64,000 nucleotides of DNA from a virus. This document shows positions 17,543 to 56,934 of this stretch, in pieces. The stretch covers positions 1-64,000 of IMG/VR virus record IMGVR_UViG_3300008262_000018, one strand, 5' to 3'. Both the position numbers and the translations under genes were made by a program. Numbering within the stretch: the stretch's first letter is position 1; each line of letters starts with the position of its first letter. Under the pieces are notes generated by a model. The model made no database searches. It worked only from the letters and a program-made list of their open reading frames with translations, and was not told the origin of the DNA.

Positions 17543-17797
17543 ATGAAAAAGAAAACAATTACATCAAAATCTATTAAAAAGTATCAAGGTGGTGGAACTA
17601 CTATAACAACAACAATTCCTCATTCATTTGCTAAAGGTTTTAAAGTATCAAAGCCAAATCCTAAAACAATTTCACCTTTTGATTATAAAAGAAAAGCAGA
17701 AGATTTATTTAAAAACCCAGAACAACCTGTAAAGCCTACTCCTCCTTCGTATCGTATGAAAAAAGGTGGATCTATTACTAAGTCTAAAAAGAAATAG
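17543..17797 (+). CDS. Small basic protein with two GG motifs (KKYQGGG-TTITTT, MKKGG)
   Basis: Lys-rich ORF in tandem array. Confidence 0.7.
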   Translation: MKKKTITSKSIKKYQGGGTTITTTIPHSFAKGFKVSKPNPKTISPFDYKRKAEDLFKNPEQPVKPTPPSYRMKKGGSITKSKKK

Positions 17798-22452: not shown

Positions 22453-22620
22453 ATGCAAAAGTGTTTAAACTGCGATTCACAAATTACTTGTGGGTGCCAA
22501 AGGCGTCATGCTACAGATGGTAAACTGGTTTGTACAAAATGCCTTGCTGATTATGAAAAAAAATTAGCAGAGTCAAAACAAGAAGCTCCTAAACCTGAAG
22601 AAGATAAAAAAGATACATAA
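22453..22620 (+). CDS. Small Cys-rich protein (55 aa, not in ORF track)
   Basis: MQKCLNCDSQITCGCQRRHATDGKLVCTKC...; TAAAAACCAAC leader; TAATG coupling. Confidence 0.75.
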   Translation: MQKCLNCDSQITCGCQRRHATDGKLVCTKCLADYEKKLAESKQEAPKPEEDKKDT

Positions 22621-37306: not shown

Positions 37307-37666
37307 ATGAAATATACATTAAAAATTAAGCTACCAACATATAATTGCGAGCTTCAATTTTATGTTACAGATCAGTTAAATGCTGAAATAAACAAAGTGT
37401 ATAAAAAATATAAAGTGGACGATGTGTTTGAGGATAGTGCTGAGGGAGTGTTATTTACACCAGATATTGATAAATATATACTTTTTATAGATATTAAATA
37501 TCTTAGTCATAACACTATAGCACATGAAATTTTTCATGCGGTTGTAAAAATAACAGGAGATAGAGATATAGAAGATGAAGAGGCACAAGCTTGGTTGGTA
37601 GGACATATCACTGGAGATGTCTATAAGTTTTTAAAGAAAAAAGTAATAGAGATAACTAATGGCTGA
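37307..37666 (+). CDS. Small zincin-like metallopeptidase
   Basis: TIAHEIFHAV...DEEAQAWLVG (HExxH plus distal E). Confidence 0.75.
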   Translation: MKYTLKIKLPTYNCELQFYVTDQLNAEINKVYKKYKVDDVFEDSAEGVLFTPDIDKYILFIDIKYLSHNTIAHEIFHAVVKITGDRDIEDEEAQAWLVGHITGDVYKFLKKKVIEITNG

Positions 37667-40600: not shown

Positions 40601-42338
40601 AGATAATCCTGGTATTCAGTTTGACAAGGGTAATTTGTTTTATGTTAAGACAGGGTACTTTTATCTTTTTAATTCAGGAGTGAGAGACTTTTTTGTAGAA
40701 TCAGAAGTTAATGTGGCGCTTAGAGATTGGGAAGATGAGTTTGGGAAAAGACATTATGATCCTTACGAGTATACAGATCTTCAAACAATGTTTAGAAGTG
40801 ATCTAATAAAGAATGGTAATTTTTATAAATATGACTATTCATTAAGTGTTTCTAAACTTCCTGGAAGTTCTACAACATGGGGTAAACTATTTGATAGATT
40901 TTACGATCCTCAAGATGCTTCATCATGTTTTACTTATACACCTAATAGAATCATATATTCATCAGCGTCTGATATAGATGCACCCACTGTAACAAGAAGT
41001 GTTCAAGATAACTGGAGAATATTTTTACCAAATAACACAAAGGATTTTGAAACTAATGTTATTTCTATAAAACCTATTAATAAAACAGGTGCTTTGTTTT
41101 TAATGGAAAAGCAAAGTCCATTTTCATTTTCAGGTCAAGAGCAGTTTAAAACAGATCAGGTTAATACAATAATAACTATTGGTACAGGAGATCTATTTAA
41201 AAGTTCTCTTCAAAATATTATAAGATCTGAAGATTATTTTCAATATGGTTCTTGTCAAAATAGATATTCTGTTCTAAACACGTTACACGGTGTATTTTGG
41301 GTGAGTCAAGAGCAAGGTAAAATATTTTTGTTTAGTAGTGGAATAAAAGAAATTACAAGAGATACAGGTTTAAAGATGTGGTTTTCTAGAAACCTCCCCT
41401 CTAATCTTTTAAAACAATTTCCAAATTATATACATAAAGATAACCCTGTAAAAGGTGTAGGTGTATTAACGTCATATGATAATACGTATGAAATCTTTTA
41501 TGTAACTAAAAAAGATTATAAACTAATAGATCCTAATCGAGGTATTTATTTTTATGATGAGGTTCAAGATGAGTTTTATTTTAATGGTAGTAAAATACTA
41601 TTAACAGATACAACACATTTTGTAAAAGCTGATTGGACTATTAGTTATGATCCAAAAAGTCAACATTGGATAAGTTTTCACGATTGGCATCCAACATTTA
41701 ATGTATCAAGTAAGAACCACTTTTTAACTGTTAATAATAACTCTGTTTGGAAACATAATGTAAGATGTGATAGTTATGGTAATTTTTATGGCGTTAACTA
41801 TCCTTTTGAAATAGAGTTTGTGTCATCAACTGGTCAAACAGTTAATTCCATGAGGAATATAGAATATGTGTTAGAAGCATATAGATATCATAACGACTGC
41901 TATGATAAGTTTCATGTTCTTGATGAAAACTTTGATCAAGCAATTATTTATAATTCAGAACAAATATCAGGTGTTTTAAATTTATTTTTAAAAGATAAAA
42001 CAAATCCTTTAGATGTAATAAAGCAACCTGTAATAAATGCTAATTCAATTGACATATTATTTTCAAAAGAAGAAAATAAATATAGATTTAATCAGTTTTG
42101 GGATATAACAAAAGATAGAGGTGAATTTAATAACGTTAATATTCCAATGTTTGTTACAAATGCAAATGGATATGAATATAATATTAATCCAGCATATGTA
42201 AACTATAATAAACCTGTGCTACAACGTAAAAAGTTCAGACATCATGTTAATAGAGTTTTCTTAAGAAGAAATGTGAGTGGTAGTAATAATATGTTATTTA
42301 AGTTATCTAACCAAAAACTACTAAACAGTCCACGATGA
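37659..42338 (+). CDS. Tail stabilization/muzzle protein
   Basis: 1559 aa beta-rich; FQKGMVKD, YWDDGLNP.R, YMRDEQYAF.I.F, FGGD.YI, WTISYD...WISFHDW.P. Confidence 0.8.
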   Translation: MAEETNQSQNAGTSKTNTFQKGMVKDYNETFVGEGLYTHARNAINNTHHGQIGVLGNEPSNLSCYNFPYTVIGAVHMYDDTWAIFTTNDVDSEIGLFDDSQCSYETIVNNKCLNFKKSNLITGAYKERYDCERVIYWDDGLNPTRFLNIDDIPWNENCVVQNDCRICTPIIGDLDCDQLRIAPFVTTPCIQVEKGKIAGTLPNGSYQVCIAYTINQVRITDYIGLSEVQPLFNHLGNSSSLEVKINTIDKDNFDEFELVVYATINLGTYAKRIGYYSTSQGTIYIDRWDPEFVTVPIELIPMRTEPVERTDAMFQLNNYLVRTGPRSKYKFNYQPQANNIISKWVAVQYPEDYYRKGGNNAGYMRDEQYAFFIRFIYNTGDRSESFHIPGRATFVGDRTIVTGDDIYETIPVEKWKAYNTGTVIPSAPIPQLPDGGIPLAQGYMGYWEAESEFYPDDKPDIWGNLCGKKIRHHKMPDETVDPILSTFRPGGKSIVLLGVRFENITPPLDENGNPITSIVAYEILRGSREGNKTILAKGIINNMFEYPIPGNNLVKGLFQNYPYNDLRADSYLTTKRQTSNTGDPFPASTVNNTTAPKLNTVKRDIFSFHGPDVVFSNPFLSANELKLYSEFNGKQLGIFAVPFRHPRFKVISNAPAIVADLIALADTISSAANIVATIVGTQGSTSSNTLSFSGTEGLPLIFQYGPLKRPPAPPSEDSVTSGGVNRALNYALWALELVGWATQTLALIKLELAMQSAKAEKLLDVLKYIIPNVQYARQYRSHGLYDNFKSLQTNNTRRSLVEANYIFPQIQQFTLDYQVNNINRSQYVCLQLDKVLADPLTQDTSKFLLSDVGCDDGSDHERPISSYYGALKIPIPNQYGQLWTIKQLPINSNCLTQIKPSFTSVTSPILFGGDVYITRFTEKNTMFFFDNWLVGEPDEALIDYTYYTNIPWPRHWINTEPQKLVSLTNTPAVYRSLDCNQDNPGIQFDKGNLFYVKTGYFYLFNSGVRDFFVESEVNVALRDWEDEFGKRHYDPYEYTDLQTMFRSDLIKNGNFYKYDYSLSVSKLPGSSTTWGKLFDRFYDPQDASSCFTYTPNRIIYSSASDIDAPTVTRSVQDNWRIFLPNNTKDFETNVISIKPINKTGALFLMEKQSPFSFSGQEQFKTDQVNTIITIGTGDLFKSSLQNIIRSEDYFQYGSCQNRYSVLNTLHGVFWVSQEQGKIFLFSSGIKEITRDTGLKMWFSRNLPSNLLKQFPNYIHKDNPVKGVGVLTSYDNTYEIFYVTKKDYKLIDPNRGIYFYDEVQDEFYFNGSKILLTDTTHFVKADWTISYDPKSQHWISFHDWHPTFNVSSKNHFLTVNNNSVWKHNVRCDSYGNFYGVNYPFEIEFVSSTGQTVNSMRNIEYVLEAYRYHNDCYDKFHVLDENFDQAIIYNSEQISGVLNLFLKDKTNPLDVIKQPVINANSIDILFSKEENKYRFNQFWDITKDRGEFNNVNIPMFVTNANGYEYNINPAYVNYNKPVLQRKKFRHHVNRVFLRRNVSGSNNMLFKLSNQKLLNSPR

Positions 42339-45300
42339 GTTATAATAAAAAAATGTTTAGAGAAATGGTGGAAGAATCTAAAAAGAAAAAAGTTCTTCCA
42401 AAACCTAAAGATAGGATAGTAGATCCTATGGGTCAATGGGCTCATCCAGGACAAGTGACACGTATTCCTTCTAATAGAATAACAATGCAGGGTGTTCCCT
42501 ATCCTGTATTAGGTGTAGGTAATAATGGTCAACAACAAATGATGTATCCAGGACAAGAATATAGTTTTCCTGGTTCACAATATGTAGATGAATATCCTTT
42601 GATGCAAGCTCAAAATGGAGCTATTATAGATCCTGGAGATGATGAATTAGCTTTTCAAAGGTTTTTTAAAACTCTTCCTTTTAATTTAAGAGTTGATAAT
42701 CCTAGTTATAATATTAGAGGATATTGGAATGCTTTAGGTAGACCAGAAAAATTTGACTACAGTCAACCAAAAGAGGATGATGGAATGTACCATGCATTTA
42801 GTAGAAATCCAAACACTGGTGAAATATTAAAAAGACCTCAACATCCAACATTTAAAATGGCTATTGAGGGAGATAGAGCTGCTGGATATTATCCAATAGT
42901 AACACCTGATGGGAAAATAAAAACAGTATCTGGAAGAGATTTTAAACCTGGTCAATCTATATATTTTAATGGAGGAGATATATCTATACCTAATTTAAAA
43001 AAAGAAGGTTGGTTAAACAAATATGATAATGGTGGACAACTTGAAAAATTTAAACCAGGTGGATTTTTTACAGTACCTACCACTACTAAATTTGATTGGA
43101 GTACTGTACAACGACTTCCAACTAAAGAAGAAAGAGACGAATATTATGCAGAGCAAGGAAGAAATAAACAAAATAAAACAGCAAGAGGACAAATAATTAA
43201 TAAAACTAAAACTACTACTCAAAATAATACTTCCACTACTGCTCAAAATAAAACAAATCAAAATAGTTCTGGAGTTTCTTCTGAAGCAAATCCTAATTAT
43301 AATTGGAATATGACTAGTATTGTTCCTGAATGGACGACAAATACACAATTTCCTACTAGTAATAAAATTCCTATAAATATTAACTATGAAGATATTGTTC
43401 GCAGAGGAGATTTAGAAACACAAACTGGTACAGGTAGACAAGTTCTTTTAAATAAAGCTATTGCTTCACAAAACATTGCTAATCAAAAATTTGAAAAAGG
43501 TGTAGCTGCATTAATGAGTTCTGGTATGTCAGAAGAAAGTGCAATTAGAACATATCAAGAGTATATTAGAAATCCAAAACTTCTTCCAGGAATAGGTTGG
43601 CAGATTGATGATATTGAAAATAGAAACTATAGGATAAGCATGCATCCTGATTATGATCCTAATAAATCTTTTGACCAACAAAAATATTTAGCTACAGATG
43701 GATCACTAAGAGCAAGACTATTAAGAGGTTCTAATATGTTAAATAGTAGTGGAGATCCTGTTTTAAATTTTTTAACTGGTGCTATAACAGCACCAGGAAG
43801 AGCTTTTGCAAATCTTACAACAAATGCTAACCAACGATATTTAAATTCAGATAATTCAATTTTAGAAAATGTTACAAATTTAGGTCTTGATCTTCTTGAT
43901 GTTACTGGAGCAGGTATATTTACTCCTAAAAATGCAGCAAAATTGGTTGGAAATAAAGGTTATACTACGGCTCTTAATCTTTATGGTGATAATATTCCAA
44001 GATTTTCAACAAGTGGTACAACAAATATAGGAAGTTCTTCAGCTCTAAATTTATCTAGAAATTTAGATAATACTGGAGTTGGAGCACGTACTCAAAATAC
44101 TGGAGTAGCTACTCAAAATATTTTTAATAACTCATCAGATGCGATAAATACTGGAGTAGTTTCTCCAAAAGTAAATTTAGCAACATCAGGTAATAAAACA
44201 AGAGCACAAATTCAAGCTGAGAATCTTAGACGTATGGCAGCAGAAGGGGAGGCAGCTAGAAATGCTGCGGTTAATCAAGCTAAAACAACATCACTTGTAT
44301 CTAGAGAAGATGTGGCAAGAAATGTTCTAAAAGATGATCCAATATTTGGTGGCACTGAAGGTGGATGGGGGCGTACTGGTAGTGGTAATAAATCTTTGTC
44401 TTATGATGATATGGTTGATCGTCTTCATGCTGAATATGCTCAAAATGACGTATTAGCATTAGGTAACTATCCTGTTTATTTTCATGGAACAACATCAGGA
44501 TCTCTACCTGGAATTGTAAAAAATCAAGGATTAATACCAACTGGAAAACTTATTAGCCAAGGAGATATTCCTTTAACAGGTGAATTAAGTTTTGGAAGCT
44601 TACCTGGAATAGGAATGAATAATGAAAATCTTTCTGCAGCTTTTATAGGAGACATTAATAGTTCTCTAAATTATGCAGGTGGAAAAAATTTTATTAACCC
44701 TATACAACGACTTGAAACATGGAATACAGTAGATAGACCAGAAGTGATTTCATGGATGCCTGAAAACCAAATTAAATTTTATGATGAATTACTTACAAAT
44801 CAGGCAAATAAATGGCAAACACTTTCTCAAGAAGAAAAACTATTAGCTGAAGAAAACTTTCCTATTTTGTTTGGTATAAGACCAAAAGGAGCAGATAGAT
44901 TTAGTACAATTAGAACATCTATAGACGGAGAAGTTGGTATAAAGGGAGGTGTAGGTTTTAATGAAATTCCTAGTGTATATGTTCCAAAAAGTAAAATAGA
45001 ATATGTTTCTCAATATTTTGGTAATCCAGATAGAATGAATATATTACCAATAGATGAGTTATTGTTAAAGCACAATCAAGGTACAATGCCTAGTTGGTGG
45101 AAGTGGAAAAAAGGTGGAACAATTGGACAATATAAAAAAGGTGGTTGGTTGAATAAATATGATGATAGTAGATTTACTACAGTGTCTACTACTACTTTTT
45201 CACCTGAACAAAAAAATAATCTTGTTACTAATTTAAACTATTGGAAAAATGTTAGCAATAACATGGGAAATCAAAATGCAGGTGAAAAACCTAACAATCC

Positions 45301-48300
45301 AAAAGGAAAAGACAGAGGTGTTTATTTAGGGGATGATAATAGATGGCATTGGAAAAATTGGTGGAATGGTAAAGAATACACATATTATAATCAACCTACA
45401 ATGCCAGGATCTAAAGGTCAAGGATGGGATGAAGATATTATTATAAAAGGACGTGCAAAACCAAAAGAAGAACCTAACATTGACGATTATTATATTCGTG
45501 ATGCTAATGGTAGCATTATAGGTTTTGATAATGAAGGATGGCAAAGAGATAAATATAATAGAGATGTTACTACAATAAATGCAAATGATCTAATTACACA
45601 ACGTTCTCCTATTGAATTAACACAATCTTTGAATCAATCAAAATATAATAGTCAAGTAACAGGATTAGATAATGAAGAAATAAGACAAGCAAAAGAACAA
45701 GAAAGATTAGCATATTTACAACAAAAAGAAGAGGAAGAACGTAATAAACAAGTAATAGATATTAGGAACGATTGGGTATGGATGAATGAAGAAGAAAGAA
45801 ATGCAGAAAGAAATGCTGCTAGTTTTAGAGGTGATAATACATCACTATCTCAAAATTTTCCAGTATATAATCCTATTACTAAAAAATATGAACAAGCTCC
45901 AAGAAGTGATGCCAAATTTTCTAAATTGTGGTCTAAAGATTATTTAAGAGAGAAACCACGCGATATGACCTGGGTAGATTGGGCTCTTCTAGCAGCTCCT
46001 GCTGCTGTTATTGGAGCTGCTACTGCTCCTGCTTGGGTACCTGCTGTAGGTACTGCTCTTACTGCACCATTTACAATAGGTTCTACAACAGTTCCATGGT
46101 TAACAGCAGGTAATGTTCTTAGTGCGTATGGTGCTACTAATAGTTTAATGAATTTAGGAAATCCATCATCTAACTTATATAGATCAATTGGAGAAGCTTA
46201 TAGAAATCCAAATGTTAATACTATAATAAATGCCACTGGAAATGCTCTTGAAACAGGATTAGGTTTTTATGGATTTCCTGCTAAAGCAGGTGCAATATCA
46301 TTAGTTGATGATCTTTCAAGAACAGGTAGATATTTAACAACTCCTTTAAGAAATACAAAAGCATCTAAAACTATTTCACAACTTTCACAAAAAAATTATG
46401 TAGATAAACAAGGACTACCAGTTGTAACTTTTGATGATATAGACGCTCTTATTGAAAAACAAATTAATTGGTTAGATAGTGATGAATATGCTATAAGAAG
46501 AATGGCATCTACTGGAGAATCTTTAAATGAAATTAGAAAAAGTACAGATAAATGGATAAATCAAATAAGAAAAAATAAAAAAGATGTTTTTCGAGTTAAT
46601 CCAAATCTTGAGTCTCAAGGAGAATATAATCTTATACCAGATTATCGTAATTTTATTACTACTTTAATGGGAAAAAGAAAACCTCGCATCATGTATCGTC
46701 CACAAGACAGATCTAATATGTTAAATATTCTTGATCATGAAGTTTTACATGCATTTTCTCCAGCTCTTAAAAATGATAAATTATATAAAAATTATCCAAC
46801 ATTAGATGTTCTACAACCTACTAAACGTACCTTTTTTGAAAAGTTATTTAACAAAAAGCCTTATACTAAAGAGGAACAACACTTGCTTTATCTAGCAGAT
46901 AAACCAGAACAACAAGTAAGAGGAGTTAGATTATATCAAAAAATTATTGATGATTTAGATATTCCAGAATATAGACCAATAACACAAAAAGAATTTGATG
47001 ATTGGATAGATAACTATTTTAATAAAAATGCAAATAAATATTGGGATGAAGGTCTTGGTGATGTAGTTGAGTTATTAGGTTCTGCTAAGCGTGAAGCAGA
47101 TATTAAAAAGACATTAGGTACTGATAAAGGAGTTTTATTTCGAAAATCTGTTTTAGACTTTCTTAATAAAGTATGGGCAATTCCTGCAGCTATTACTATT
47201 GGTTCTGAAACTTTAAAAGAAAAAAAACAAGGTGGAGAAATTAATTGGTTAACTAAGTATGATGATGGAGGATTTGCAACTACAGGTCTAAGTACATATC
47301 CTTCATATATTACAAATAATGTAAATGTTGCAGAAAGTACAAGACCTTCAAATTATAAAAAATTTGAAATAATAGAAAAACAAGAACAATCTGCTTTAAA
47401 TAATAATGTAAAATTTGTTAAAATTAAAACTAATAATGGAAGTTATATTAATTTAAGAACAGATAGTAAAGAATACAATGATTTAATAAAAAATAATGCT
47501 ATTGATCCTTATTCGTTTAATAAAGCAGATGGTTCGTTTAGTTTAAGACCACAAAAACAACAAAAACAAGAACCATCTGCTTTATTAGGCGAAGTAGGAT
47601 CAATAGCTAAAGAAAATCTTAAAAAAGTATATAATAAACTTGAAGAAACAGCAGAAGATTTGTGGAATTCTTATTCAAAAGCGATGAATCAAGCTCCATT
47701 AGATGCTAAAGGTATTAATCTTGGATCTGGATTTGGGGGCATAGAAAGTAAAGGAGTAGCAGCAAAAATAGCAGAGGCAACTAGAGGTTATGTTAGTGGG
47801 GTTATTCGTAAACTTGATCAAATGAAAGAAGAAGACAAAAAAGCAAAAGTAGTAGAAAAGAAAACACCTATGGTAAAAAATTCTCAAAGAAATATATTAC
47901 CACAAGGTTATACAGAGCTAGCTACTGTACCAGATGTTTATTCTTCAAATCCTACAGATAGTTTAGTTTCTTTTATTAATGTTTTTGATAATGATGAAGG
48001 AATTGATTATATTGTAGGTAATAAAATAAAAGAAATTACAGATGGAAAAAATGTACTATCAAGATATGGTAATACACGAGCAGTAGCTCATTTTTTAAGA
48101 GATGCTGATATACTACCTAATCAACAATTTGCACCAATGGAATGGCCTACTATAAAAGGGTATACATTCCGTAGCACATCCCCAGGTAAAGCTATTTCAG
48201 CTACAGGTTTTGATGATCCCGAAAGATATAGAATGCTTTATCAAAAAACTGGTGATGGAAATAGATATCGTATAAAGTATGTTAAAAATAAAGATTTAAC

Positions 48301-48811: not shown

Positions 48812-48812
48812 T

Positions 48813-50141
48813 ATGAAAAAAGAATTTTTAAAAATGGCTGGTGTAGAAAATGAAAAAGATTTCTACAAATTATTTCCAACAGAAGAAACATTCTTTGGTA
48901 TGTATCCTGAAGCTAGAAAACTAGTTCAAAAGAAATATGGAGGTTTAATTAAAGCTAAAGGAGGATTTGGTGTTACAGGTTTAACCACAGCACCATCATT
49001 AAATAGAACTACTGAAATAGATGACCCATCACGTACATCTTCTAATTTTGCTGCAACACCAATAGCTATAAATCCTAATATGGTAAATCCTAATATAGTA
49101 AATCCATTATTTAGAAGATTTTCAGGAAATCTTAAGTTTAATTGGGGTGATCCTAAAAATAGAAATGTTTTTTCCTACGGATTAACAAAAGAAAAAGAAA
49201 ATCCATATTATAGTCATAAAGCAGGCTTAAGTCTTAATAATTTATTTTCTCCAGGTAGAGGTAGTTTTAATTTAACTGGTGGTTATACACCAAAAACTGG
49301 TGAATATAATGCAGGATTTAATTTTGGATTACCAAGTAGAAGAACTATAGCAAAAGACGAACCTAAATCTAATTTCAATGCTGGATTTAATATCATGCGA
49401 AATGATAAAGGTAGAGTGACAAGAACAGCTGAAGTTGATTATAATACAAGATTGGGCAATAAAAAATCTTCTCCAACATTAAGTGTAGGTGTTGATTTAG
49501 GATATAGATATGGTGGTGGATTAATAAAAGCTGTTGGTGGATTTAATGTTACAGATTTAAGTACAAAACCATCAATGAATTGTAGCAAGGGTAGTTGTCA
49601 AATGAATACAGATGACTATAGCTGGATAAAACAGAATCAAAAAATAAAACCCCCACCTCTTATAAGTCCTTGGGAAGCTATAACTTGGAATAAAGGAGAA
49701 TTTGCTGAAGATCAGCATGCTAAAATAAAAAAAGAGTGGGAACAGAATAAAAATTTATATGCTAACAGATATCCTAATTTAACATATGATGAATTTTATG
49801 CAGCTAATGAATTAGAAAGATATAATAGATTAAATCAAGGTCAATATAATAATTACTTTGATGCACAAGGTAATCCTGTTGAAGGAATGGATGCGCGAGT
49901 TTATTCTGCTCAACCTTATATTCCTTGGGCTAGAGCTGCTTTTAATACACCAACTCCTTCTCGTGAAGCAATTTTAGATTATTTTCAAACTCATAAGTTA
50001 AACAAAGATGATATAAAAAACTTTGTTAATGATCGTTATACATTTCCAAAAGAACATATGGTAGCACCTCCTTATTTTAGAATGGGTGGTGGTTTAATGT
50101 TAGGTAAACAAGGAAGTAAAAAAAAAGGGTGGGTCAATTAA
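48813..50141 (+). CDS. Cargo protein with two YGG(G)LIKAxGG-F.VT.L[TS]T modules
   Basis: KKYGGLIKAKGGFGVTGLTT and RYGGGLIKAVGGFNVTDLST. Confidence 0.72.
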   Translation: MKKEFLKMAGVENEKDFYKLFPTEETFFGMYPEARKLVQKKYGGLIKAKGGFGVTGLTTAPSLNRTTEIDDPSRTSSNFAATPIAINPNMVNPNIVNPLFRRFSGNLKFNWGDPKNRNVFSYGLTKEKENPYYSHKAGLSLNNLFSPGRGSFNLTGGYTPKTGEYNAGFNFGLPSRRTIAKDEPKSNFNAGFNIMRNDKGRVTRTAEVDYNTRLGNKKSSPTLSVGVDLGYRYGGGLIKAVGGFNVTDLSTKPSMNCSKGSCQMNTDDYSWIKQNQKIKPPPLISPWEAITWNKGEFAEDQHAKIKKEWEQNKNLYANRYPNLTYDEFYAANELERYNRLNQGQYNNYFDAQGNPVEGMDARVYSAQPYIPWARAAFNTPTPSREAILDYFQTHKLNKDDIKNFVNDRYTFPKEHMVAPPYFRMGGGLMLGKQGSKKKGWVN

Positions 50142-52243
50142 ATACATATAACAAGGGTGGATTTGTAACAACAGAAGCTACAACAAGACCTAGTGTATCA
50201 GAATCTGATAAACAACTTTTAGATGATGTTAGAAATAAAAAAATTGCTTGGTATAGTCAACGTGTTAATCATCCAGATCCTAGAATTAGCTCTGAAGCTA
50301 GACAAGCACTTGAGTTATTAAATAAGTTTCCTGCAGATCCTAGTAAAGATATAAAGTACACTGATATACCTCTTTTACAACAAAGTGGAGTTGTTGGTTT
50401 ATACCAACCTTATGAAAGAAAAATGTATTTAGCAGATCCTTATAAAACTTTTGATCAACAAGTAAAGTCATATTATCCTAGAGGACTAAGAAATCCAGGA
50501 GAAAAAGATGAACTTAAAAAATACTACGACTACGCTATGACTTCTGAACCAAGAAGTCATGAAGGTGAGCATTATTATGAACATCCTATATTAGATAATA
50601 TAGTTAATAAATATAACAATCAGATTTTTTCACAATATGCTGATCCAGATGTATATAGAGATCTGCTTTATGAAAGAGTAGGTAAACCTGAATTCCCTAA
50701 AAAAAGAGATCAATATGCATTTGATCTAGACGCTAATCATTTTTATAAATGGATGACAGGTACTGATGATCCTCGTTTTGGGTATAATAAAAGAAAAGGA
50801 GTTAATAAACATTTCACTCCAGCTGAAATGTATAGGGCACTTAATGATATAAGAACAGAATATAATATAGATGCTTCTAAAAATACAAGTCCTGAAGATT
50901 TTAAAACTATTTATGAAAAAGTTCAACAATCTTATAAAGATGCTAAAGAAAAGAAAGATAAGGGCGCTGCTATGAGATATGGTCATATGCTTGATCTTTT
51001 CTACATTCACGGAAATGATTTTGAAAAGATAAATAATTTGAATAACTTATTAGTGAGAGATGTGTCTTCGGATTTACCAGTTGCTGATGAAGGATTTATT
51101 GTTACAACAGATGTCACAAGTAAAAGTCCTTCTCAAATAACACGTGAGATAATCTTACTTGGGGAAATAGCTAGAGCTGAGCATGAGGAATTTAAAAAAA
51201 GGCTGAATGCCACTAAATTTTCATTAAGCAATCCACATTTAGCAACACTACCATCATCTGAAGATATGGCAGCTGCTAGAAGACTTGATGAACAAAAACA
51301 ATTCTATGAGGAAAACCCAAATGCTGGTACAATGGCAAGAGGTGATAATACAGTTCTTGTTAAAAACTTTCCTGTTACAGATCCTATAACAGGTAGACTT
51401 ATTCAACCTCAAAAACTCACAGCACCAGCTTGGGCAAAAGGATTATCTTATGAAGCTTGGGATATTGCAAATCAACCTGGTTTTGTTACTCGTTTGCAAA
51501 GAAATCCTTTGCCATTATGGGCACAATTGCTTGATCCTACAGGAGTTAGCAACTATGGAAATGTTAAAACATCTTATGAAGATATGGTAAACTCTGAAGG
51601 GTTTTGGCCTAAAATAGGTAATTCATTACTTTTTGGACTAGATGTTCTTAGTAGTATACCAATTATTGGAAAAGTTCCTAAAGTCCTATCAGGTGCTACT
51701 AAAGGATCAAAAGCTGTAAAAGGAGCAAGCAAAGCTTCTAAAGTTGCAAAAGTAGCAAAACCAAATGTTGCTAAAGAAATATTTTTAAGACCAATAACTA
51801 ATATAGATAGATTTACTGGAGCAAATAATTTATTTCGTTTATCATCAAATGCACCTACCTGGTTAAACAGAGCAACTAATCTAACAAATTCGTTTAATAG
51901 AGGTAGGCGATATTTTGGAGGATTATATCACGGTGGTATGTATGGATTAGATGCTCTTTCTAATTTAGGATCTCAAAATCAACCAGAATATATTCCAAGT
52001 GGTGTAGGTACTGTAGATACTGGATATACAGATAATCAAGAAAAAATTAAAAAAATAGAAAATGATTCTTTGTATGCTAGTCCAGGTGGTGATGATGAAA
52101 TAGTAACATTTCAACTCCCTGATGGGCGTGTTGTAAAAATGAGTTCAGGTAGTAAACCATACGCAGATTTAATGAACAGAATTGATTCTTATGATTTTGA
52201 TGATAAGAAAAACATGTTTATAATAAAAAAATATAAAAAATAA
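50129..52243 (+). CDS. Cargo protein with zincin domain and pre-toxin-like hydrophobic segment; may be fused to the upstream ORF
   Basis: HEGEH...PAEMY; DPTGVSNY...LDVLSSIPIIGK; weak GTG start next to an A9 tract. Confidence 0.7.
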   Translation: MGQLNTYNKGGFVTTEATTRPSVSESDKQLLDDVRNKKIAWYSQRVNHPDPRISSEARQALELLNKFPADPSKDIKYTDIPLLQQSGVVGLYQPYERKMYLADPYKTFDQQVKSYYPRGLRNPGEKDELKKYYDYAMTSEPRSHEGEHYYEHPILDNIVNKYNNQIFSQYADPDVYRDLLYERVGKPEFPKKRDQYAFDLDANHFYKWMTGTDDPRFGYNKRKGVNKHFTPAEMYRALNDIRTEYNIDASKNTSPEDFKTIYEKVQQSYKDAKEKKDKGAAMRYGHMLDLFYIHGNDFEKINNLNNLLVRDVSSDLPVADEGFIVTTDVTSKSPSQITREIILLGEIARAEHEEFKKRLNATKFSLSNPHLATLPSSEDMAAARRLDEQKQFYEENPNAGTMARGDNTVLVKNFPVTDPITGRLIQPQKLTAPAWAKGLSYEAWDIANQPGFVTRLQRNPLPLWAQLLDPTGVSNYGNVKTSYEDMVNSEGFWPKIGNSLLFGLDVLSSIPIIGKVPKVLSGATKGSKAVKGASKASKVAKVAKPNVAKEIFLRPITNIDRFTGANNLFRLSSNAPTWLNRATNLTNSFNRGRRYFGGLYHGGMYGLDALSNLGSQNQPEYIPSGVGTVDTGYTDNQEKIKKIENDSLYASPGGDDEIVTFQLPDGRVVKMSSGSKPYADLMNRIDSYDFDDKKNMFIIKKYKK

Positions 52244-52270
52244 TTATTCACAACTTTAAATTTAAAAACA

Positions 52271-54157
52271 ATGTATTACGGAACAAATCCTTATGGTTTA
52301 TCACCTTATATGTATGATGATCCATATACTACCTTGCAACGCGCTCAATATGGTTTAGAATCTGGTATGCCTTTTGAAGGTTTACCTCAATTAACTGGAT
52401 TACCAGAACCAGAACCTCAACCTGCAAATTACGCTTCATATCGTCAATTTAAAGATGCTTATGATAAATGGGTTATTGACAACTCTATGCTATCTCAAAT
52501 GGCTAATGTAGAAGATCCTGGTTTAGTTTCAGATCAAGGTGTAGTTGTACAAAATCAATCACCTTCTGGTTTTGTAGAACCTTCTTATCAAGGTCCAACT
52601 GTTGTTGAATATCTTGGATCAGCTGGTAAAACTTCAGATTATGCTACAAGAAAGCAAATTGCTAAAGTTTTGGGTATTCCAAATTACAAGGGTACTGCTT
52701 CTCAGAATAAGTTAATGATTAATCTTTTAGCTCAAAATCCAGCAGTTTTAAATAGTATTGCACAAAGTGTTAGTAGAGGTAGAGTAGTAGCACCTACTGG
52801 AATAGCTCCATCTCCTTCTATTGAAGAAGAAGAAGTTATTGTAGAAGATACAACTGGTGTAAACATTCCTATTGTTGATAGTTCTGGTAATGTTATTGAT
52901 ACAACGTCAGGAAGAGTTCTTACAACATTACCTAAATCTACTTATAAATCTAAAGGAAAAAAAGAAGAAGGATCTAGTAATCTTGAAAAAGCAATTGCTG
53001 CTTTATCTGCAACAGCACTTATAGGTGGAGCTGGGTATGCTGGTTTTGTAGAAGCAAAAAATATAATTGCTAGTACGTATAATTTAACAGGTGAAAATTT
53101 AAAATTATACAATGAGATTAGTAAAAAAAGAATAATGCCTAAAGTAAGAGGTGCTATAAAAGCTTGGGAAAACTTAGGAGATGAGGGTCAAGCAACATGG
53201 CGTGAACTAGACGATATGATTCGAGAAGATGCACGTATAGCTCGTAAGTATAAAGGTATGACAGCTGAAGAAAGAGTTGCATTTGATCTTCTTGAAGAAC
53301 AACGTAAACTTGAAACTGCTACTCGTACTCAGAAAACCAATATGAGATTAATGCAAAAATATGCTCCAAAAGGTACACCAAAGCTTACAGTTCCAAACAC
53401 TCCAAAAGCATTACCAAAAGTAAAAGCTCCTGTATCAACAGGGAGAGTTCTTCCTAAAGCTACTTTCTCATATCAAGGAGCAGCTCAACAACTTGGAAAT
53501 ACAATGACAAGAGCTTCAAACTATATAAAAGCAAGCAAGCCTTTTCAGAGAACATCAAGTTACTTAGATGAAATTTCAGCTACAGCTAGAAATCTTAAAA
53601 ATTCAAAAGCTTTTAAAACTGCTGGTAATTTGTTAAAAAGATTTAGATTTCAAGAGGGTGGTGAACAGCAAAATCAAATGATGCAACAAATTATTAGTTT
53701 TATTTCTCAAGAGTTACAACAAAATAAATCACCTTATCAAATAGCTGAAGCTTTAATGACGTATGGTATTTCACAAAAAGATGCTTTAGATTTAGTTGAT
53801 CAAGTTACAATGCAGATGTCACAATATATGCAATCAAATATGGCTGGTGCTCCACAAGGAGAAGATCAAGGATATATGTCAGCAGATCAAGGAGAAGCAG
53901 CTCAACAACAAATGATGATGGCATATGGTGGTGGATATTCAGGTACGTATGATCAAGGATCAGGATCTTATTTTCAAGCAGGAGGATCTTTTGTTCCTAC
54001 ATATGGTGATATTCTTCCTCAGTATATGTATGGTTCTGGTTATGATCAATCTTATATGCAAGATGGTGGTTCATTAAATATAGGAGATATGCTTGATGTA
54101 ACTCCAGAACAAATGGAGTATCTTCGCCAACAGGGATATGATTTTGACACAGTGTAA
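52271..54157 (+). CDS. Cargo/virion protein with DUF3597-like domain and GG motifs
   Basis: TVVEYL...SDYATRKQIAKVLGIPNYKGTASQN..MI; FQEGG, MAYGG, FQAGG, MQDGG. Confidence 0.7.
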   Translation: MYYGTNPYGLSPYMYDDPYTTLQRAQYGLESGMPFEGLPQLTGLPEPEPQPANYASYRQFKDAYDKWVIDNSMLSQMANVEDPGLVSDQGVVVQNQSPSGFVEPSYQGPTVVEYLGSAGKTSDYATRKQIAKVLGIPNYKGTASQNKLMINLLAQNPAVLNSIAQSVSRGRVVAPTGIAPSPSIEEEEVIVEDTTGVNIPIVDSSGNVIDTTSGRVLTTLPKSTYKSKGKKEEGSSNLEKAIAALSATALIGGAGYAGFVEAKNIIASTYNLTGENLKLYNEISKKRIMPKVRGAIKAWENLGDEGQATWRELDDMIREDARIARKYKGMTAEERVAFDLLEEQRKLETATRTQKTNMRLMQKYAPKGTPKLTVPNTPKALPKVKAPVSTGRVLPKATFSYQGAAQQLGNTMTRASNYIKASKPFQRTSSYLDEISATARNLKNSKAFKTAGNLLKRFRFQEGGEQQNQMMQQIISFISQELQQNKSPYQIAEALMTYGISQKDALDLVDQVTMQMSQYMQSNMAGAPQGEDQGYMSADQGEAAQQQMMMAYGGGYSGTYDQGSGSYFQAGGSFVPTYGDILPQYMYGSGYDQSYMQDGGSLNIGDMLDVTPEQMEYLRQQGYDFDTV

Positions 54158-54168
54158 AATATATTATA

Positions 54169-56934
54169 ATGCCTAGAATTATTATTAAAAGAAAAGGATT
54201 GGTAAAAGCATTTGATGGGTTAAATCTAACAACAACTAGCACAACTTCAGCTTCTGGAGTAGTAGGAAGTGGTGTTTTTGCTCCTGGATACGGGGTTAAT
54301 GCTACAACTACAACTACAACAAAACCTCCTATTCCTTTTTCAGGTGCAGGAACTAATCCAAATGAAAGTACTACTAACCCATTTAGTACAAATTTTAATG
54401 CATTGGATTGGGCTAGAGATTTGTATATGAACCCTGCTAAATCTTCTCCACAACCTGAAAGACTAAGTTGGGCTGAAAGAACTCAAGATAATCTTAATAG
54501 ATTTTATTCTTCATTAGATGATATTAGAGCACCTTTAGCAGAATATGATGCTTATAGAAGAAATAGAAGAGCAGAAAGATTTGATAGGGAAAATAGTTTA
54601 CCTGATAACTATTTAGCAGTGGGTCAGCAAAGTGCAGCTAATACTAGAGGGGATTGGGATATAAATACAGGTATGTTTGGTAAACAAGGTAGTTATGTTG
54701 CAAACAAAGGACAAACTATTAATCCTACAGGTTTTTTACCTGAAAGGGGCTTTAATAACAGAAACGCACAATATGGAGGGCAACAAGGTATGAAAATTAG
54801 AATAACAGGACTACCAAACCAAGAACAAATGGCTTATGGTGGTCAAGCAAGACATTCGTTAGATATTAGAAGAGATGCTTTAGCAAATCCTAATATTACA
54901 TATGAAGATCCATATGAAGTTAATAATACACTTCAACCTGTTCCCAGAGATGAAGCAAATCTAGAAGCAGAAAAAGATGAAACTGTTTTTGGAGATATTG
55001 ATGGAGATGGTGGTTTTGAACATTTTAAAGTGGGAGGTAAGCGACATTCTCAAGGAGGCACTCCATTAAATCTACCTGAAGGATCTTTTGTATTTTCAGA
55101 CACTGCTAAAATGAAAATAAAAGATGGAGAAGTTCTAGCCTACTTTGGATTGAAACCTAAAAAAGGTGGATACACTCCTGCTGAAATTGCTAAGAGATAT
55201 GATATAAATAGATATAAAGGTATTCTTGAAAATCCTGAAGCTGATGAACTTAGTAAAAATACAGCACAGCAGATGGTGAATAATTACAATAAGAAACTTG
55301 CGTATCTTGCTCTTATTCAAGAATCAATGAAAGGATTTCCACAAGGTATTCCTGAAGTTGCTCAAAAAATTCTTGGATTAGAAGCTCCAGAAGAACAAAT
55401 GGCTTCACCTGAAGATGAAGAAATGGCTATGCAAATGGGGCAACAACCTCAGATGATGGGACAACAACCAAGTGAAGAAGAAATGATGATGATGCAACAA
55501 CAAGGTGCAGAACAGCAAGCTCCTCAAGAACAAGCAGGACAAATGTTTTCTTATGGTGGTGAGTCTCAACTTATGAAATATGCACCTGGAGGTGCTTTTG
55601 ATTTTCCAACAACAAGTACATCAACTTTAGTTGGTAGTGGCTCATCTTTTGATCCAAATGTAACATATCAACATACAGCAACTCAACCTGGTTATTTAGA
55701 TTATAGTGATCCTAATTATGCTGGAGGTATATGGGCTGGTGATAGATATGAGACTGAATGGAAACCTTTAGTTAGTACAACTCTTGATGATCCAACTAAG
55801 TATGATAGAGTTGTAGAAGCTCTTGATAATTATACAGGTCCTGATGCAGATGATGTTAGAGCAATTATGTCTAACGCTAGATCAAGTGGGGATTTAAAAG
55901 GTAGAATTAGAACTTACTCTACAGACACTAAAGTAGGACCTTTTCATAATGCTGTTTATAGTGCTATAAATAGTATAAATGATACTACAACAACTACTAC
56001 TGCAGCTGTTGTACCAGATAAAAAAATTGGATGGAAGTGTGACCCAGCTACAAATAAACCTGTACCAAAAGAATATGCTACAGATGCTGAAATGACAGCT
56101 GATGGTGCTGTAACATATGAGAATCAAGCTAGTCTTCCTTGTGCAAAACCTGGTGATGTAAATTCAGGTAAACCAAGTAATGTTCCTTATGGACCATTGT
56201 GGCCTGATACAAGAAACCTTGCTAGAGCTGGTATGTTCCCACCAAGAAATTATTCTTTAGGTATTAAAGCAGCTCCTTATTCGGAAGATTCTGTATTTTT
56301 AAAAGATCCTAGACAACAACTTGCTGAAAATCAAAGTTTGCAAAACGCTGCTATGCAAGCACTTAGTACATCAGGAGATGTAAGAACATTAGGATCTATA
56401 GGAGCTGGTCTTCAAGGTCAAAGTTTAGCAAATGCTTCTAAAATTATTGATCAGGTTCAAGGTCAAAATGTAGATATTTTAAATGATTGGGCTAAATTAC
56501 GTGGTCAAAAACAACAAGCATACAATCAATATGCTGCTGATCTTGCTACACAAAGAGCATTTTTAAGTAAAGACACAGACGTATTTAATTTAAATCAACA
56601 AAGAGCTTACCAAAGAGGACTAGGTCTTGCTGAAACAAATCTTTGGAATAACATGATGAAGATGGGTCTTCTTAATGCTACTAACCCTCGTTATAATATT
56701 GATCCTAGAACAGGTCGTGTTATATTTAAAGGTGGTTATGGACCTGGAAATTTTGGAGGAGGATCTCAGTTTCAATATGGTACTAGAGAACACTATCTTG
56801 AAATGAAATCTCGTTTTCCAACATTAAGTGAAGAAGAATATTTAAGGATGGGTAAAAACTTTCCAAGCAAAACAGAAGAACCAGATCCTTATGCTCCTTA
56901 TTACAATTTTTATAATCCAACAATTCCTGAATGA
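54169..56934 (+). CDS. crAss-like cargo/ejection protein
   Basis: ANLEAEKDETV...GKRHSQGG.PL.LPEGSFVFSD core; Q/M-rich linkers; GG motifs; Thr tracts. Confidence 0.72.
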   Translation: MPRIIIKRKGLVKAFDGLNLTTTSTTSASGVVGSGVFAPGYGVNATTTTTTKPPIPFSGAGTNPNESTTNPFSTNFNALDWARDLYMNPAKSSPQPERLSWAERTQDNLNRFYSSLDDIRAPLAEYDAYRRNRRAERFDRENSLPDNYLAVGQQSAANTRGDWDINTGMFGKQGSYVANKGQTINPTGFLPERGFNNRNAQYGGQQGMKIRITGLPNQEQMAYGGQARHSLDIRRDALANPNITYEDPYEVNNTLQPVPRDEANLEAEKDETVFGDIDGDGGFEHFKVGGKRHSQGGTPLNLPEGSFVFSDTAKMKIKDGEVLAYFGLKPKKGGYTPAEIAKRYDINRYKGILENPEADELSKNTAQQMVNNYNKKLAYLALIQESMKGFPQGIPEVAQKILGLEAPEEQMASPEDEEMAMQMGQQPQMMGQQPSEEEMMMMQQQGAEQQAPQEQAGQMFSYGGESQLMKYAPGGAFDFPTTSTSTLVGSGSSFDPNVTYQHTATQPGYLDYSDPNYAGGIWAGDRYETEWKPLVSTTLDDPTKYDRVVEALDNYTGPDADDVRAIMSNARSSGDLKGRIRTYSTDTKVGPFHNAVYSAINSINDTTTTTTAAVVPDKKIGWKCDPATNKPVPKEYATDAEMTADGAVTYENQASLPCAKPGDVNSGKPSNVPYGPLWPDTRNLARAGMFPPRNYSLGIKAAPYSEDSVFLKDPRQQLAENQSLQNAAMQALSTSGDVRTLGSIGAGLQGQSLANASKIIDQVQGQNVDILNDWAKLRGQKQQAYNQYAADLATQRAFLSKDTDVFNLNQQRAYQRGLGLAETNLWNNMMKMGLLNATNPRYNIDPRTGRVIFKGGYGPGNFGGGSQFQYGTREHYLEMKSRFPTLSEEEYLRMGKNFPSKTEEPDPYAPYYNFYNPTIPE

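Follow-up and report, generated by a model that had tools for sequence, protein, structure and literature searches.

Gly-Gly seam peptides join exchangeable modules in the cargo proteins of a freshwater crAss-like phage and may be sites of limited proteolysis

Introduction

The closest described system is cargo protein 1 (gp45) of crAss001, which occupies the lumen of the tail and also sits on the portal wing (PMC10172136). Its portal-bound cryo-EM model (7QOG chain M) starts at residue 425 and ends at residue 552 (PMC10172136). Bayfield et al. 2023 read gp45 as one tail-to-capsid chain, and their text has no word on cleavage, processing or the motif described below (PMC10172136).

Two long-tailed phages have tail proteins that are cut. 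According to extracts of Linares et al. 2023 (PMC10038345), T5 pb2 is cut after R1127, and the pb2 sequence at that site is FVPR↓AEGG (the arrow marks the cut). According to an extract of PMC12617516, lambda gpH is converted to gpH* with the loss of about 14 kDa from its glycine-rich C-terminal region. The last 120 residues of gpH contain FATGG, YATGG and MRDGG.

Polyvalent proteins hold many unrelated modules in one polypeptide which enters the cell with the DNA. In the extracts of PMC5512222, P1 DdrB is processed before packaging, and self-processing of polyvalent proteins by zincin-like domains is proposed. The words “linker”, “glycine” and “crAss” do not occur in the text of that paper, so no junction peptide is described there.

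The source phage of this study is an uncultured freshwater crAss-like phage with a complete 121-kb genome. The window is a stretch of 64,000 nucleotides, positions 1 to 64,000 of IMG/VR record IMGVR_UViG_3300008262_000018. An initial annotation of it had pointed to double-glycine motifs in five consecutive ORFs; a search of the literature for a description of the GG motif found none. We read the motif as a seam peptide that joins the exchangeable modules of long-chain crassvirus cargo (ejection) proteins of the C1 type, and we tentatively favour the seams as sites of limited proteolysis.

Results

Layout of the cargo block

The ORFs at 42335-56934 are the cargo block, flanked upstream by the muzzle gene and downstream by giant RNA-polymerase ORFs, the first at 59443. 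The order from muzzle to A-E to RNA-polymerase-associated giants is the gene position expected of crassvirus cargo protein C1 (gp45-like), and the cargo proteins are probably carried in the particle and injected. The features are as follows.

17543..17797, + strand: tiny basic ORF, 84 aa, with two tag copies, one of them followed by a Thr-rich stretch
37307..37666, + strand: small HExxH protein, 119 aa, directly upstream of the muzzle gene
37659..42338, + strand: muzzle protein gene (tail-tip gatekeeper), matching Pfam PF25731 crAss_MUZ (E 5.9e-34) and PHROG virion structural proteins; it marks the start of the cargo block
42335..48811, + strand: cargo polyprotein A, 2,158 aa, with at least five modules and four composite junctions
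42962-43090, 45104-45205, 47222-47314 and 48764-48808, + strand: junctions of polyprotein A
48813..52243, + strand: cargo polyprotein B-C, given as two ORFs, 48813-50141 (442 aa) and 50129-52243 (704 aa)
48930-48998, 49503-49577, 50076-50194 (spanning the A run) and about 51074-51133, + strand: junctions of polyprotein B-C
52271..54157, + strand: cargo protein D, 628 aa, with a low-complexity four-motif array at 53918-54070 and a C-terminal tail(i) at 54056-54154
54169..56934, + strand: cargo protein E, 921 aa, with a head peptide at 54169-54219 and a core at residues 252-404 (54922-55380)
54766-54843 (with an internal head copy) and 55546-55638, + strand: junctions of protein E
57004..59418, + strand: conserved ORF that follows the cargo block and takes the place of crAss001 gp46, with no [MFYWH]xxGG

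Five consecutive cargo ORFs had been annotated, but 48813 and 50129 are joined in public contigs, which makes the true number four. In the window the A run 50118-50126 has a -1 frame change that separates the two, and polyprotein B-C is a single frame of about 1,143 aa if this run has ten A. The public contigs which cover the site have one extra A (A10, not A9) in 3 of 3 cases, from 3 studies. In one relative (P0005) the B head and the C body lie within one ORF, and in another (L002) the N-domain of C lies at the end of polyprotein 1. A relatives search with the 704-aa C ORF as query found none.

Neither Pfam nor PHROG scans gave a match for the cargo ORFs or excised modules, except for PHROG 2307, matched by residues 106-162 of D; polyprotein A matched no Pfam family. 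An ESM Atlas look-up of residues 60-236 of the 442-aa ORF returned unnamed clusters only, below 0.9. Homologues of ORF 57004-59418 come after the E-type ORF in relatives, and its BLASTP comparison with crAss001 gp46 was not significant (E 2.0).

A motif defined by the residues before Gly-Gly

The recurrent GG motif in the five ORFs proved to be real. All of the strings that had been quoted are present where the initial annotation placed them: those of the four junctions of polyprotein A, the two LIKA pairs of ORF 48813-50141, and YNKGG, FQEGG, MAYGG (twice), FQAGG, MQDGG, AQYGG, FSYGG and YAPGG. [FYMAK]xxGG occurs 25 times in these ORFs (4,853 aa) versus 8.7±2.9 in per-protein shuffles, and none of 300 shuffles reached 25. 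The genome's other 110 ORFs have 32 versus 26.4±4.8, a count reached by 44 of 300 shuffles. For the stricter [MFYWH]xxGG the cargo ORFs have 18 versus 4.2±2.1 (0 of 300 shuffles), and the rest of the genome has 24 versus 14.8±3.5 (1 of 300), a slight excess which is partly due to the small ORF 17543-17797. Plain GG is barely enriched in the cargo ORFs (44 versus 33.5±5.4; 6 of 300 shuffles), so the signal lies in the residues which precede GG.

The motif is restricted to cargo proteins in relatives as well. Across 60 related contigs, [MFYWH]xxGG was found 898 times in cargo ORFs versus 199±13.5 in composition-keeping per-protein shuffles, and 92 times in the other ORFs versus 104 expected. A sister motif, [LVIM]P[KRQE]A[QRKE]xG, occurs 82 times in cargo ORFs (190,375 aa), where shuffles give 0.7, and is absent from the other ORFs (0 in 193,405 aa). 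Over 767 distinct instances the residue at position -3 is mostly M (0.32), Y (0.32) or F (0.26), and position -2 prefers A (0.21), Q (0.20) and K (0.14). Arrays are frequent: spacings of 6-9 residues make up 82 of 684, and D has four motifs in about 50 aa. In 42% of 172 ORFs the last motif is no more than 30 aa away from the C-end, versus 16% by chance, and the excess within 20 aa of the N-end is weak (18% versus 12%). Phage phi14:2 shows a weak or variant form of the tag (g070, 2 versus 0.44, 22 of 300 shuffles; g069, 1 versus 0.39).

Motifs mark the seams between modules

When the gene ends of relatives were mapped on longer ORFs, 21 of 24 C-ends and 21 of 34 N-ends fell at a motif, versus 0.18 and 0.17 at random. 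Within longer ORFs the motifs thus mark the points at which genes of relatives start or stop, and the modules are therefore plug-in cassettes, as had been suggested: relatives have them joined, separated or placed in another order at the motif. The suggested module swapping at motifs was found in related genomes, and the clustering of motifs at domain boundaries holds clade-wide by this mapping. A to E consist of independent homology blocks which map to differing ORFs and orders in relatives; those of polyprotein A that are common to relatives span residues 1-110, 89-320, 1230-1653 and 1824-2157. BLAST block ends in the window's own five proteins give a weak signal, with 19 of 81 at most 15 aa from a motif and per-protein P of 0.06 to 1.0. 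Searches with tblastn against named phages matched 5% of A in one phage and nothing for E.

Gene ends carry conserved peptides. In at least six distinct cargo ORFs a WLxxY element is followed by no more than 1-7 further residues before the end, and a head peptide is kept at 38 gene starts. In an alignment of 50 sequences of tail(i), the GG column is at least 90% conserved. Of 50 ORFs that end in tail(i), 44 are followed by an ORF with a head peptide that fits a strict pattern, the remaining 6 being visible variants, versus 61 of 390 for ORFs without tail(i). The tail-head pair is retained within fused ORFs, for example as ...YIVEEL-PKAQFG. A complex prediction of the D tail (last 40 aa) with the E head (first 40 aa), using 50-row alignments, scored 0.23 versus a mark of 0.32.

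Some of the sites listed in the initial annotation are not linkers: FKVGG and HSQGG of E (residues 286-297) are inside a fold predicted at pLDDT >90, and ALIGG of D (residue 249) is in a hydrophobic stretch. The AlphaFold2 model of E places three of its five strict motifs in low-confidence linkers (pLDDT <60) around a confident core (pLDDT >90).

Comparison with crAss001 gp45

Protein E is probably the counterpart of gp45. When the core of E was compared with the PDB, 7qog_M was rank 1 of 350,542 chains in Foldseek, at a weak E of 0.46, and also rank 1 in VIA (Z 5.3, rmsd 3.9, 91 residues, 22% identity), 0.4 above the next row. An hhalign comparison with gp45 was not significant (E 0.1), and the A4 profile had no match among PDB sequences. 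The gp45 gene comes next after the muzzle gene, as the block of A to E does in the source phage, and gp45 carries the same tag. The two differ in that crAss001 has one 842-aa protein, whereas the source phage has four genes, 4,853 aa and many extra modules.

In gp45, A[FY]GG occurs at residues 207, 330, 425 and 560, four versus 0.085 expected, a count reached by 0 of 2000 shuffles. Strict [MFYWH]xxGG is not significant in gp45 (3 versus 1.5, P 0.19); in gp47 it occurs 4 times versus 1.16 (P 0.027). Residue 425, at which the portal-bound model starts, would be the new N-terminus under the T5 rule. gp45 also has a GG-WLNTQ-GG junction. Its residues W429-Q433, between two GG pairs, are continuous in the model, which rules out cutting for at least this GG pair.

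Comparison with T5, lambda and polyvalent proteins

The T5 sequence FVPR↓AEGG aligns residue for residue with LIKAKGG and LIKAVGG of ORF 48813 and with [LVIM]P[KRQE]A[QRKE]xG; the mapped cut site V-P-R↓A-E-G-G is matched in ORF 48813 by L-I-K-A-K-G-G and L-I-K-A-V-G-G. T5 pb2 and lambda gpH resemble the cargo in that they lie in the tail lumen, leave before the DNA does, and have hydrophobic stretches and a peptidase module. The glycine-rich region in which lambda gpH is cut carries three tags, FATGG, YATGG and MRDGG. They differ in that those phages are long-tailed with one cut per protein, whereas the source phage has many seams per protein. No tape-measure Pfam family was found among 74 E-type proteins at E up to 1.

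The blocks of A to E show the mark of polyvalent proteins, unrelated domains reshuffled between relatives (for which the extracts of PMC5512222 set 2 to 15). The hub of polyvalent proteins is a zincin-like metallopeptidase in those extracts, whereas the HExxH modules of the cargo match no Pfam family.

Protease candidates

HExxH motifs occur in the cargo at residue 1468 of A and residue 144 of C, and neither region had a Pfam match even at E up to 10. The 119-aa HExxH ORF 37307-37666 is a weak candidate for a processing protease. Its H73, E74 and H77 are invariant in 5 homologues, and a small HExxH ORF lies upstream of the muzzle gene in 6 of the 14 loci showing that place. AlphaFold2 predicted it with a mean pLDDT of 88.7. 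Foldseek found no fold match at E up to 0.001, a wide VIA search gave no clear one (best Z 5.3 for unrelated chains and 4.6 for a YbeY-family chain), and tblastn against named phages gave one weak match.

The papain-like ORF 22620-23504 (PF00112, 24.7 bits against a cut-off of 20.7; phrog_16701, E 1.5e-53) was rejected as the maturation protease, since crAss001 and all 4 relatives that were searched lack its domain; what those 4 relatives share with it is just the N-terminal 75 residues. Elsewhere its relatives adjoin holins in actinophages. None of the 39 contigs with close relatives of this ORF is in the set of 80 contigs, compared by eye, and two of the 39 are the contigs of L002 and L003. 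For ubiquitin-like GG processing by JAB and a ThiF-like E1 the genome offered no candidates: JAB (PF14464) and ThiF/E1 (PF00899) had 0 matches in it, and the JAMM pattern is in no ORF of it. crAss001 gp76 and gp77 had no tblastn match in the source genome.

Adenovirus and ASFV maturation proteases cut at a Gly-Gly consensus, and the initial annotation had taken cutting after GG as its model. Like these viruses, the source phage has virion proteins with Gly-Gly in a short motif. Unlike them, it has no clan CE protease: a search of its complete genome for clan CE / C39 proteases (C5, C48 and C39; PF00770, PF02902 and PF03412) gave 0 matches at E up to 1. The hydrophobic residue of the source phage stands one place further from GG than that of the adenain consensus. 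Because no such protease is present and T5, the mapped analogue, is cut two residues before GG, this model is not supported.

Discussion

Three of the possible explanations for the motif carry little weight. That Gly-rich, Tyr-rich linkers would produce the pattern by chance is hardly credible: the cargo ORFs are Gly-richer (0.086 versus 0.063) and their plain GG is 1.3 times expectation, but the per-protein shuffles refute this for both the main and the sister motif. It is very improbable that the peptide is only a recombination seam, kept as shared sequence for module exchange without a role in the protein. Modules are indeed reshuffled at the motif, but copies in the genome differ in synonymous codons (for example Leu TTA/TTG/CTA and Gly GGT/GGA), so it is the protein sequence that is conserved, and the DNA differs too much to allow homologous exchange; phages without detectable DNA similarity share the tag as well. 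A capsid or tail loading signal, in which the tag or the adjoining terminal peptides would address proteins to the procapsid or tail lumen, is improbable too. There is a precedent, as T4 internal proteins have an N-terminal targeting peptide which directs them to the procapsid. Tags and conserved head and tail peptides do lie at gene ends, with the C-terminal excess given above, and the tiny basic ORF 17543-17797 is tagged at both ends. But the tag mostly occurs internally and in several copies, its excess near N-ends is weak, and ORF 57004-59418 lacks it. The general loading signal of the initial annotation is unlikely because the RNA-polymerase-associated giant (59443-72270), a protein that known crassviruses do package, contains no more motifs than chance would give (3 in 4,275 aa). 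crAss001 gp46, gp49 and gp50 also have no strict motif, though all three are in virions.

This leaves two readings of the seam in the protein. Limited proteolysis is ranked first, just short of an evenly balanced call, because the T5 pb2 site VPR↓AEGG aligns with LIKAKGG. An uncut hinge or handle is ranked second, and is quite possible if somewhat doubtful. In it, Gly-Gly would be a flexible joint, and the preceding Met or aromatic residue would cap an element or act as a sticky contact. Cargo like beads on a string would thread the portal and tail, held at several points, and leave without full unfolding; separate genes would be re-linked non-covalently, the C-terminal tail of one protein to the N-terminal head of the next. 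The low-confidence linkers around the confident core of E agree with a hinge, as do the helix formers A, Q, K and R at -2, the inferred helix-turn-strand at the tail(i) motif, and the arrays common in Y/G/Q/M-rich low-complexity stretches. So do the pairing of tail(i) with the head peptide, including in fused ORFs, and the ordered gp45 junction in what its authors model as one tail-to-capsid chain. No conserved protease was found, which also fits a hinge, and no protease travels with the motif, which counts against cutting. Cutting all motifs of the arrays would give tiny peptides; the head peptide at 38 gene starts is not explained by a mere cleavage-site relic; and the T5 parallel is a single mapped site. 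These count against cutting as well, as do the reading of gp45 by Bayfield et al. as one chain, in a text without a word on cleavage, and the continuous stretch W429-Q433. On the other side, a hinge has no need of M/F/Y at -3 and A/Q/K at -2 in phages that are only very distantly related, and that these preferences exceed what a flexible hinge needs speaks for cutting. Four of five gp45 tags are outside ordered density and are therefore not fixed handles in the mature particle, and a hinge leaves the T5 cut-site match as coincidence. The natural gene ends of relatives mimic the predicted products, and HExxH modules travel in the same cargo chains, in line with the self-processing proposed for polyvalent proteins and the processing of P1 DdrB; both observations favour cutting. 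The tags in the shortened region of lambda gpH favour it too, as do the four A[FY]GG sites of gp45, one of them at residue 425 where the portal-bound model starts.

Limited proteolysis, with its cut position and enzyme, is our best guess and might work as follows. Cargo chains would sit in the tail and portal channel and exit the particle ahead of the DNA, like the tape-measure protein of long-tailed phages. The seams would be cut during or after assembly, between -3 (Met, Phe, Tyr, Lys or Arg) and -2 (mostly Ala, Gln or Lys), as in T5 pb2, and the fragments would remain in the particle. Released modules would start with x-x-G-G-F-x-T-T-x-x-T-T-x-P-S in the source phage, whereas the short head peptides at the N-termini (M-K-V-R-I-x-K-L-P-K↓A-Q-x-G in relatives) would serve as propeptides. 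A host enzyme, such as is suspected for T5, or a cargo-borne HExxH module could do the cutting. The title of Zweig and Cummings 1973, which PMC10038345 cites, refers to host involvement.

A bolder version is doubtful. In it, crassvirus cargo proteins would be true polyproteins, cut inside the assembled particle at the code [M/F/Y/K/R]↓[A/Q/K]-x-G-G into small effectors and channel parts, and the same code and protease activity would serve the tape-measure proteins of T5 and lambda. If so, the sightings of gp45 in the tail barrel and on the portal would be explained without twelve chains through the portal channel, and the cargo block would be a cassette system delivering any code-flanked module.

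Crassviruses are among the most abundant phages known, and what is at stake is how several megadaltons of protein are loaded and ejected. The seam peptide is a parsing rule which divides giant unannotated cargo genes into modules, marks where new effector modules plug in, and supplies precise residues for testing in cultured crAss001. If the seams are cut as in T5, then the decades-old question of T5 and lambda tape-measure cutting and the maturation of crassvirus cargo would share one handle.

Layout of the cargo block

Spanning 121,096 bp in one contig, the record carries direct terminal repeats and is rated 100% complete; its first 64 kb form the window, and the phage is crAss-like. Near-identical DNA also occurs in contigs of public runs, whose labels are lake water, freshwater and fungus metagenome. 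The main features, with ORFs called mechanically, are:

7251-9452, large terminase (PHROGs)
9668-12421, portal (PHROGs)
13814-15433, major head protein (PHROGs)
22620-23504, papain-family cysteine protease among the tail genes (PF00112; phrog_16701, E 1.5e-53)
37307-37666, 119-aa HExxH protein overlapping the muzzle gene start, 90% identical in the related locus L002
37659-42338, crassvirus muzzle protein (PF25731, E 5.9e-34)
42335-48811, cargo ORF A, 2,158 aa
48813-50141, cargo ORF B, 442 aa
50129-52243, cargo ORF C, 704 aa
52271-54157, cargo ORF D, 628 aa
54169-56934, cargo ORF E, 921 aa
57004-59418, ORF downstream of E
59443-72270 of the complete genome, giant ORF of 4,275 aa running past the window end, followed by one of 1,977 aa

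The two giants are presumably fused RNA-polymerase-associated proteins. In crAss001 the matching position holds the cargo proteins gp45 and gp46 and virion RNA-polymerase proteins, according to the excerpted text of Bayfield et al. (PMC10172136). Residues 106-162 of D (52586-52756) match PHROG 2307, annotated as L-alanyl-D-glutamate peptidase, and resemble a DUF3597 stretch of the related protein P0007; they may be a cell-wall-binding module.

B and C make up a single gene. As called, the two differ in frame and share 13 nt, just past a run of nine A (50118-50126), and one module junction, or seam, is split there with its halves in the two frames. Contigs from three public runs and three studies (X1, X3, X9) have one extra A and are otherwise identical over a 701-nt stretch; these are all three contigs covering the run, which a fourth run (X12) does not span. 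With ten A, the frame of 48813 would by arithmetic continue into 50129 without a stop, as one ORF of about 1,143 aa. Since ten A recur in three public runs, the nine in the window reflect an assembly slip, or else the run is variable and nine A is one of its states.

A Gly-Gly motif enriched in cargo proteins

The initial annotation read A-E as polyproteins punctuated by [FYMAK]xxGG. Every string it quoted is present in the window, and the enrichment is real: A-E contain 25 copies against 8.7±2.9 in per-protein shuffles, with at least 25 reached in 0 of 300, and the remaining 110 ORFs of the genome contain 32 against 26.4±4.8. Plain GG is hardly enriched in A-E (44 against 33.5±5.4), so the information sits in the residues preceding it. 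A very basic 84-aa ORF after the head genes (17543-17797) also has the tag near both ends (YQGGG, then a Thr-rich strand; MKKGG), and may be a small packed protein.

Relatives were collected by searching IMG/VR with an alignment of E-type proteins, which confirmed 286 among 583 candidate stretches. The best 80 loci were kept and four were added from a search with B; of these 84, the 60 with a GFPQG-box ORF were used and 24 dropped. Cargo ORFs were defined roughly, by simple patterns, as every ORF on the plus strand that follows the muzzle gene (its end was recognised in 33 loci), up to and including the E-type ORF. Across these relatives, which are not independent samples, [MFYWH]xxGG occurs 898 times in 200,112 aa of cargo ORFs, against 199.0±13.5 in shuffles, and 92 times in 200,598 aa of all other ORFs, against 104.1±10.4. 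The 767 distinct instances have M (0.32), Y (0.32) or F (0.26) at position -3 and A, Q or K at -2, with G, P, D and E abundant in the flanks. A second motif, [LVIM]P[KRQE]A[QRKE]xG, occurs 82 times in cargo ORFs against 0.7 in shuffles and 0 times in the others. In 38 cases it falls among residues 1-20 of a gene; the 44 internal copies mostly follow directly after [MFY]xxGG or the C-terminal tail with which D ends (below).

Seams, gene ends and module exchange

In the window phage the seam is longer than the five residues first described. Seven copies align to a basic-x-G-G, a short hydrophobic element (WLNKY, LIKA, QLEKF, QLNTY or LMKY), x-x-G-G and then F-x-T-T-x-x-T-T-x-P-S. These copies differ in synonymous codons, so the conservation is at the protein level.

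Cargo ORFs have three conserved endings, each directly after the motif. The one in D is GG, 2-12 residues and then [DE]-[LM]-[TS]-x-x-E-[IL]-x-x-[FLY]-x-x-x-G-[GY]-x-[IV]-E-x-[LI]. E-type ORFs of relatives end in GG-[FY]-V-...-Y-P-F-x-x, and A, with ORFs in L002, L022, L032, L061 and L069, in GG-x-x-W-L-x-x-Y plus 1-7 residues. In 44 of 50 cases, by strict pattern, the ORF after a D-type ending (tail) starts with a head peptide (M-K-V-R-I-x-K followed by L-P-K-A-Q-x-G), against 61 of 390 for ORFs lacking that ending; the other six successors, including that of the D-E pair in the window, are visible head variants. In fused ORFs this ending continues directly into PKAQxG.

Module swapping at the motifs, which the initial annotation had suggested looking for, was found: the same modules occur in other combinations in relatives. 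In L002 a WLENY element marks the point where the N-domain of C closes the first polyprotein, and the middle module of B is absent; P0005 fuses the B head to the C body. Longer ORFs of L005, L010, L014 and L022 have the N-terminal module of A deep in their interior, always 2-3 residues after GG. Over 193 distinct cargo ORFs, natural ends of relatives were mapped inside longer ORFs and the motif sought near each. It was present from -35 to +20 residues at 21 of 24 C-ends (random expectation 0.18) and at 21 of 34 N-ends (0.17), the latter leaving out one L050 ORF (start 10079) that begins inside a folded domain and inflates the count to 76 of 89. The remaining 13 N-ends mostly have relaxed variants such as KQDGG or AQYGG. 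A narrower test, on BLAST block ends of the window's own proteins, was weak (19 of 81).

Some seam-delimited modules in cargo ORFs of P0009, P0006, L006, L008, L009 and L011 measure only 30-60 aa and have matches to Pfam DUF5872 and DUF5754. In crAss001 gp45, residues 373-428 form a comparable mini-domain of the KGKFT type.

Comparison with gp45 and tape-measure proteins

AlphaFold2 was used to model residues 195-520 of E from 74 sequences, giving a core at 252-404 with pLDDT above 90. MAYGG, FSYGG and YAPGG of E fall in stretches with pLDDT below 60. Two sites listed by the initial annotation (E residues 286-297) belong to a domain that folds with confidence, and do not count as seams. The crAss001 gp45 model (PDB 7QOG chain M) ranked first for the core in Foldseek, but with E 0.46; VIA gave Z 5.3 (rmsd 3.9 Å, 91 residues, 22% identity), with the next row at 4.9. 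Sequence profiles made no E-gp45 relationship visible. On these model comparisons E is probably, not certainly, the counterpart of the C1 cargo protein gp45.

gp45 itself has A[FY]GG at residues 207, 330, 425 and 560, four against 0.085 expected (reached in 0 of 2000 shuffles), and a GG-WLNTQ-GG junction at 427-435. In its cryo-EM model, the tail barrel contains residues 214-245 and the portal wing bears residues 425-552 (PMC10172136, excerpted text). Published crAss001 gels, in the text excerpted, show bands from 15 to over 300 kDa with a 'moderate discrepancy' of sizes, and gp45 is not assigned there.

The T5 tape-measure protein pb2, cut after R1127 (PMC10038345, excerpted text), reads FVPR|AEGG at that site, one of only five GG in 1,219 residues. 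This parallel is a single site, where each position of V-P-R-A-E-G-G pairs with one in L-I-K-A-K-G-G and L-I-K-A-V-G-G (ORF 48813) and in the clade heptad L-P-K-A-Q-x-G. The T5 cut falls between positions -3 and -2, at odds with the cutting after GG first proposed. Under the T5 rule, a cut at WLNKY|DDGG would leave ends resembling the natural ...WLNKY-K gene ends, and one at N424|A425 of gp45 would create an N-terminus at 425, the first modelled residue. In lambda, about 14 kDa is removed from a glycine-rich region of gpH (PMC12617516, excerpted text), and the last 120 residues of this protein (L127 gene H) hold three tags, FATGG, YATGG and MRDGG, in that region. No homology to tape-measure families was detected for the 74 E-type proteins.

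Protease candidates

The suggested adenovirus/ASFV-type maturation protease was set aside: Peptidase_C5, C48 and C39, as well as Prok-JAB and ThiF, had no matches in the complete genome. In crAss001 (L085, 36395-38793), ThiF-annotated gp76 adjoins gp77, which has a JAMM-type H-x-H...S-x-x-D pattern (H-S-H); no counterpart of this E1-plus-JAB pair was detected in the window phage.

The N-terminal 75 residues of the papain-family ORF recur alone in four relatives, where the ORF measures about 205-212 aa, and the protease domain is missing from those relatives and from crAss001. This domain is thus an exchangeable head on a conserved 75-residue adaptor. Relatives of the protease adjoin holins in actinophages. 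In the neighbouring ORF 23508-24443, a thrombospondin type 3 repeat accompanies a metzincin-like HExxHxxGxxH site, with a Reprolysin_3 score exactly at the cut-off. The 119-aa HExxH protein precedes the muzzle gene in 6 of the 14 loci showing that place; it folds confidently in AlphaFold2 (pLDDT 88.7), with no clear match to any known fold. HExxH modules are also present in cargo ORFs A and C themselves.

Cut or uncut seams

No description of the motif was found in the literature searched. The excerpted text of Bayfield et al. has no word on cleavage, and the part of Iyer et al. (PMC5512222) consulted describes polyvalent proteins and proposed self-processing but no junction peptide. A preprint on the phi14:2 polymerase goes no further than calling fused polymerase giants 'likely cleaved'; in the giants of the window phage the tag stands at chance level only. 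New to this analysis are the long seam with its Thr tag, the joining of B and C by A10 in place of A9, the rule that links tails to heads, the count of the T5-like heptad (82 against 0.7), the alignment with the T5 site at every position and the comparison of the four gp45 A[FY]GG sites with modelled segments.

The seams may be hinges or handles that stay uncut, a possibility to which we give appreciably less than an even chance. Motif arrays are dense (6-9 residues in 82 of 684 spacings), gene ends and fusions both retain the head and tail peptides, and no protease travels with the motif. The gp45 chain is continuous between its two GG pairs, and its authors read it as a single chain from tail to capsid. 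The residue preferences, however, exceed what a hinge would need.

We tentatively favour limited proteolysis at a subset of seams, with a likelihood falling just shy of even, because the residue preferences seem too specific for a hinge, the T5 cut site matches, gene ends resemble cut products and the gp45 model starts exactly at the predicted P1' residue.
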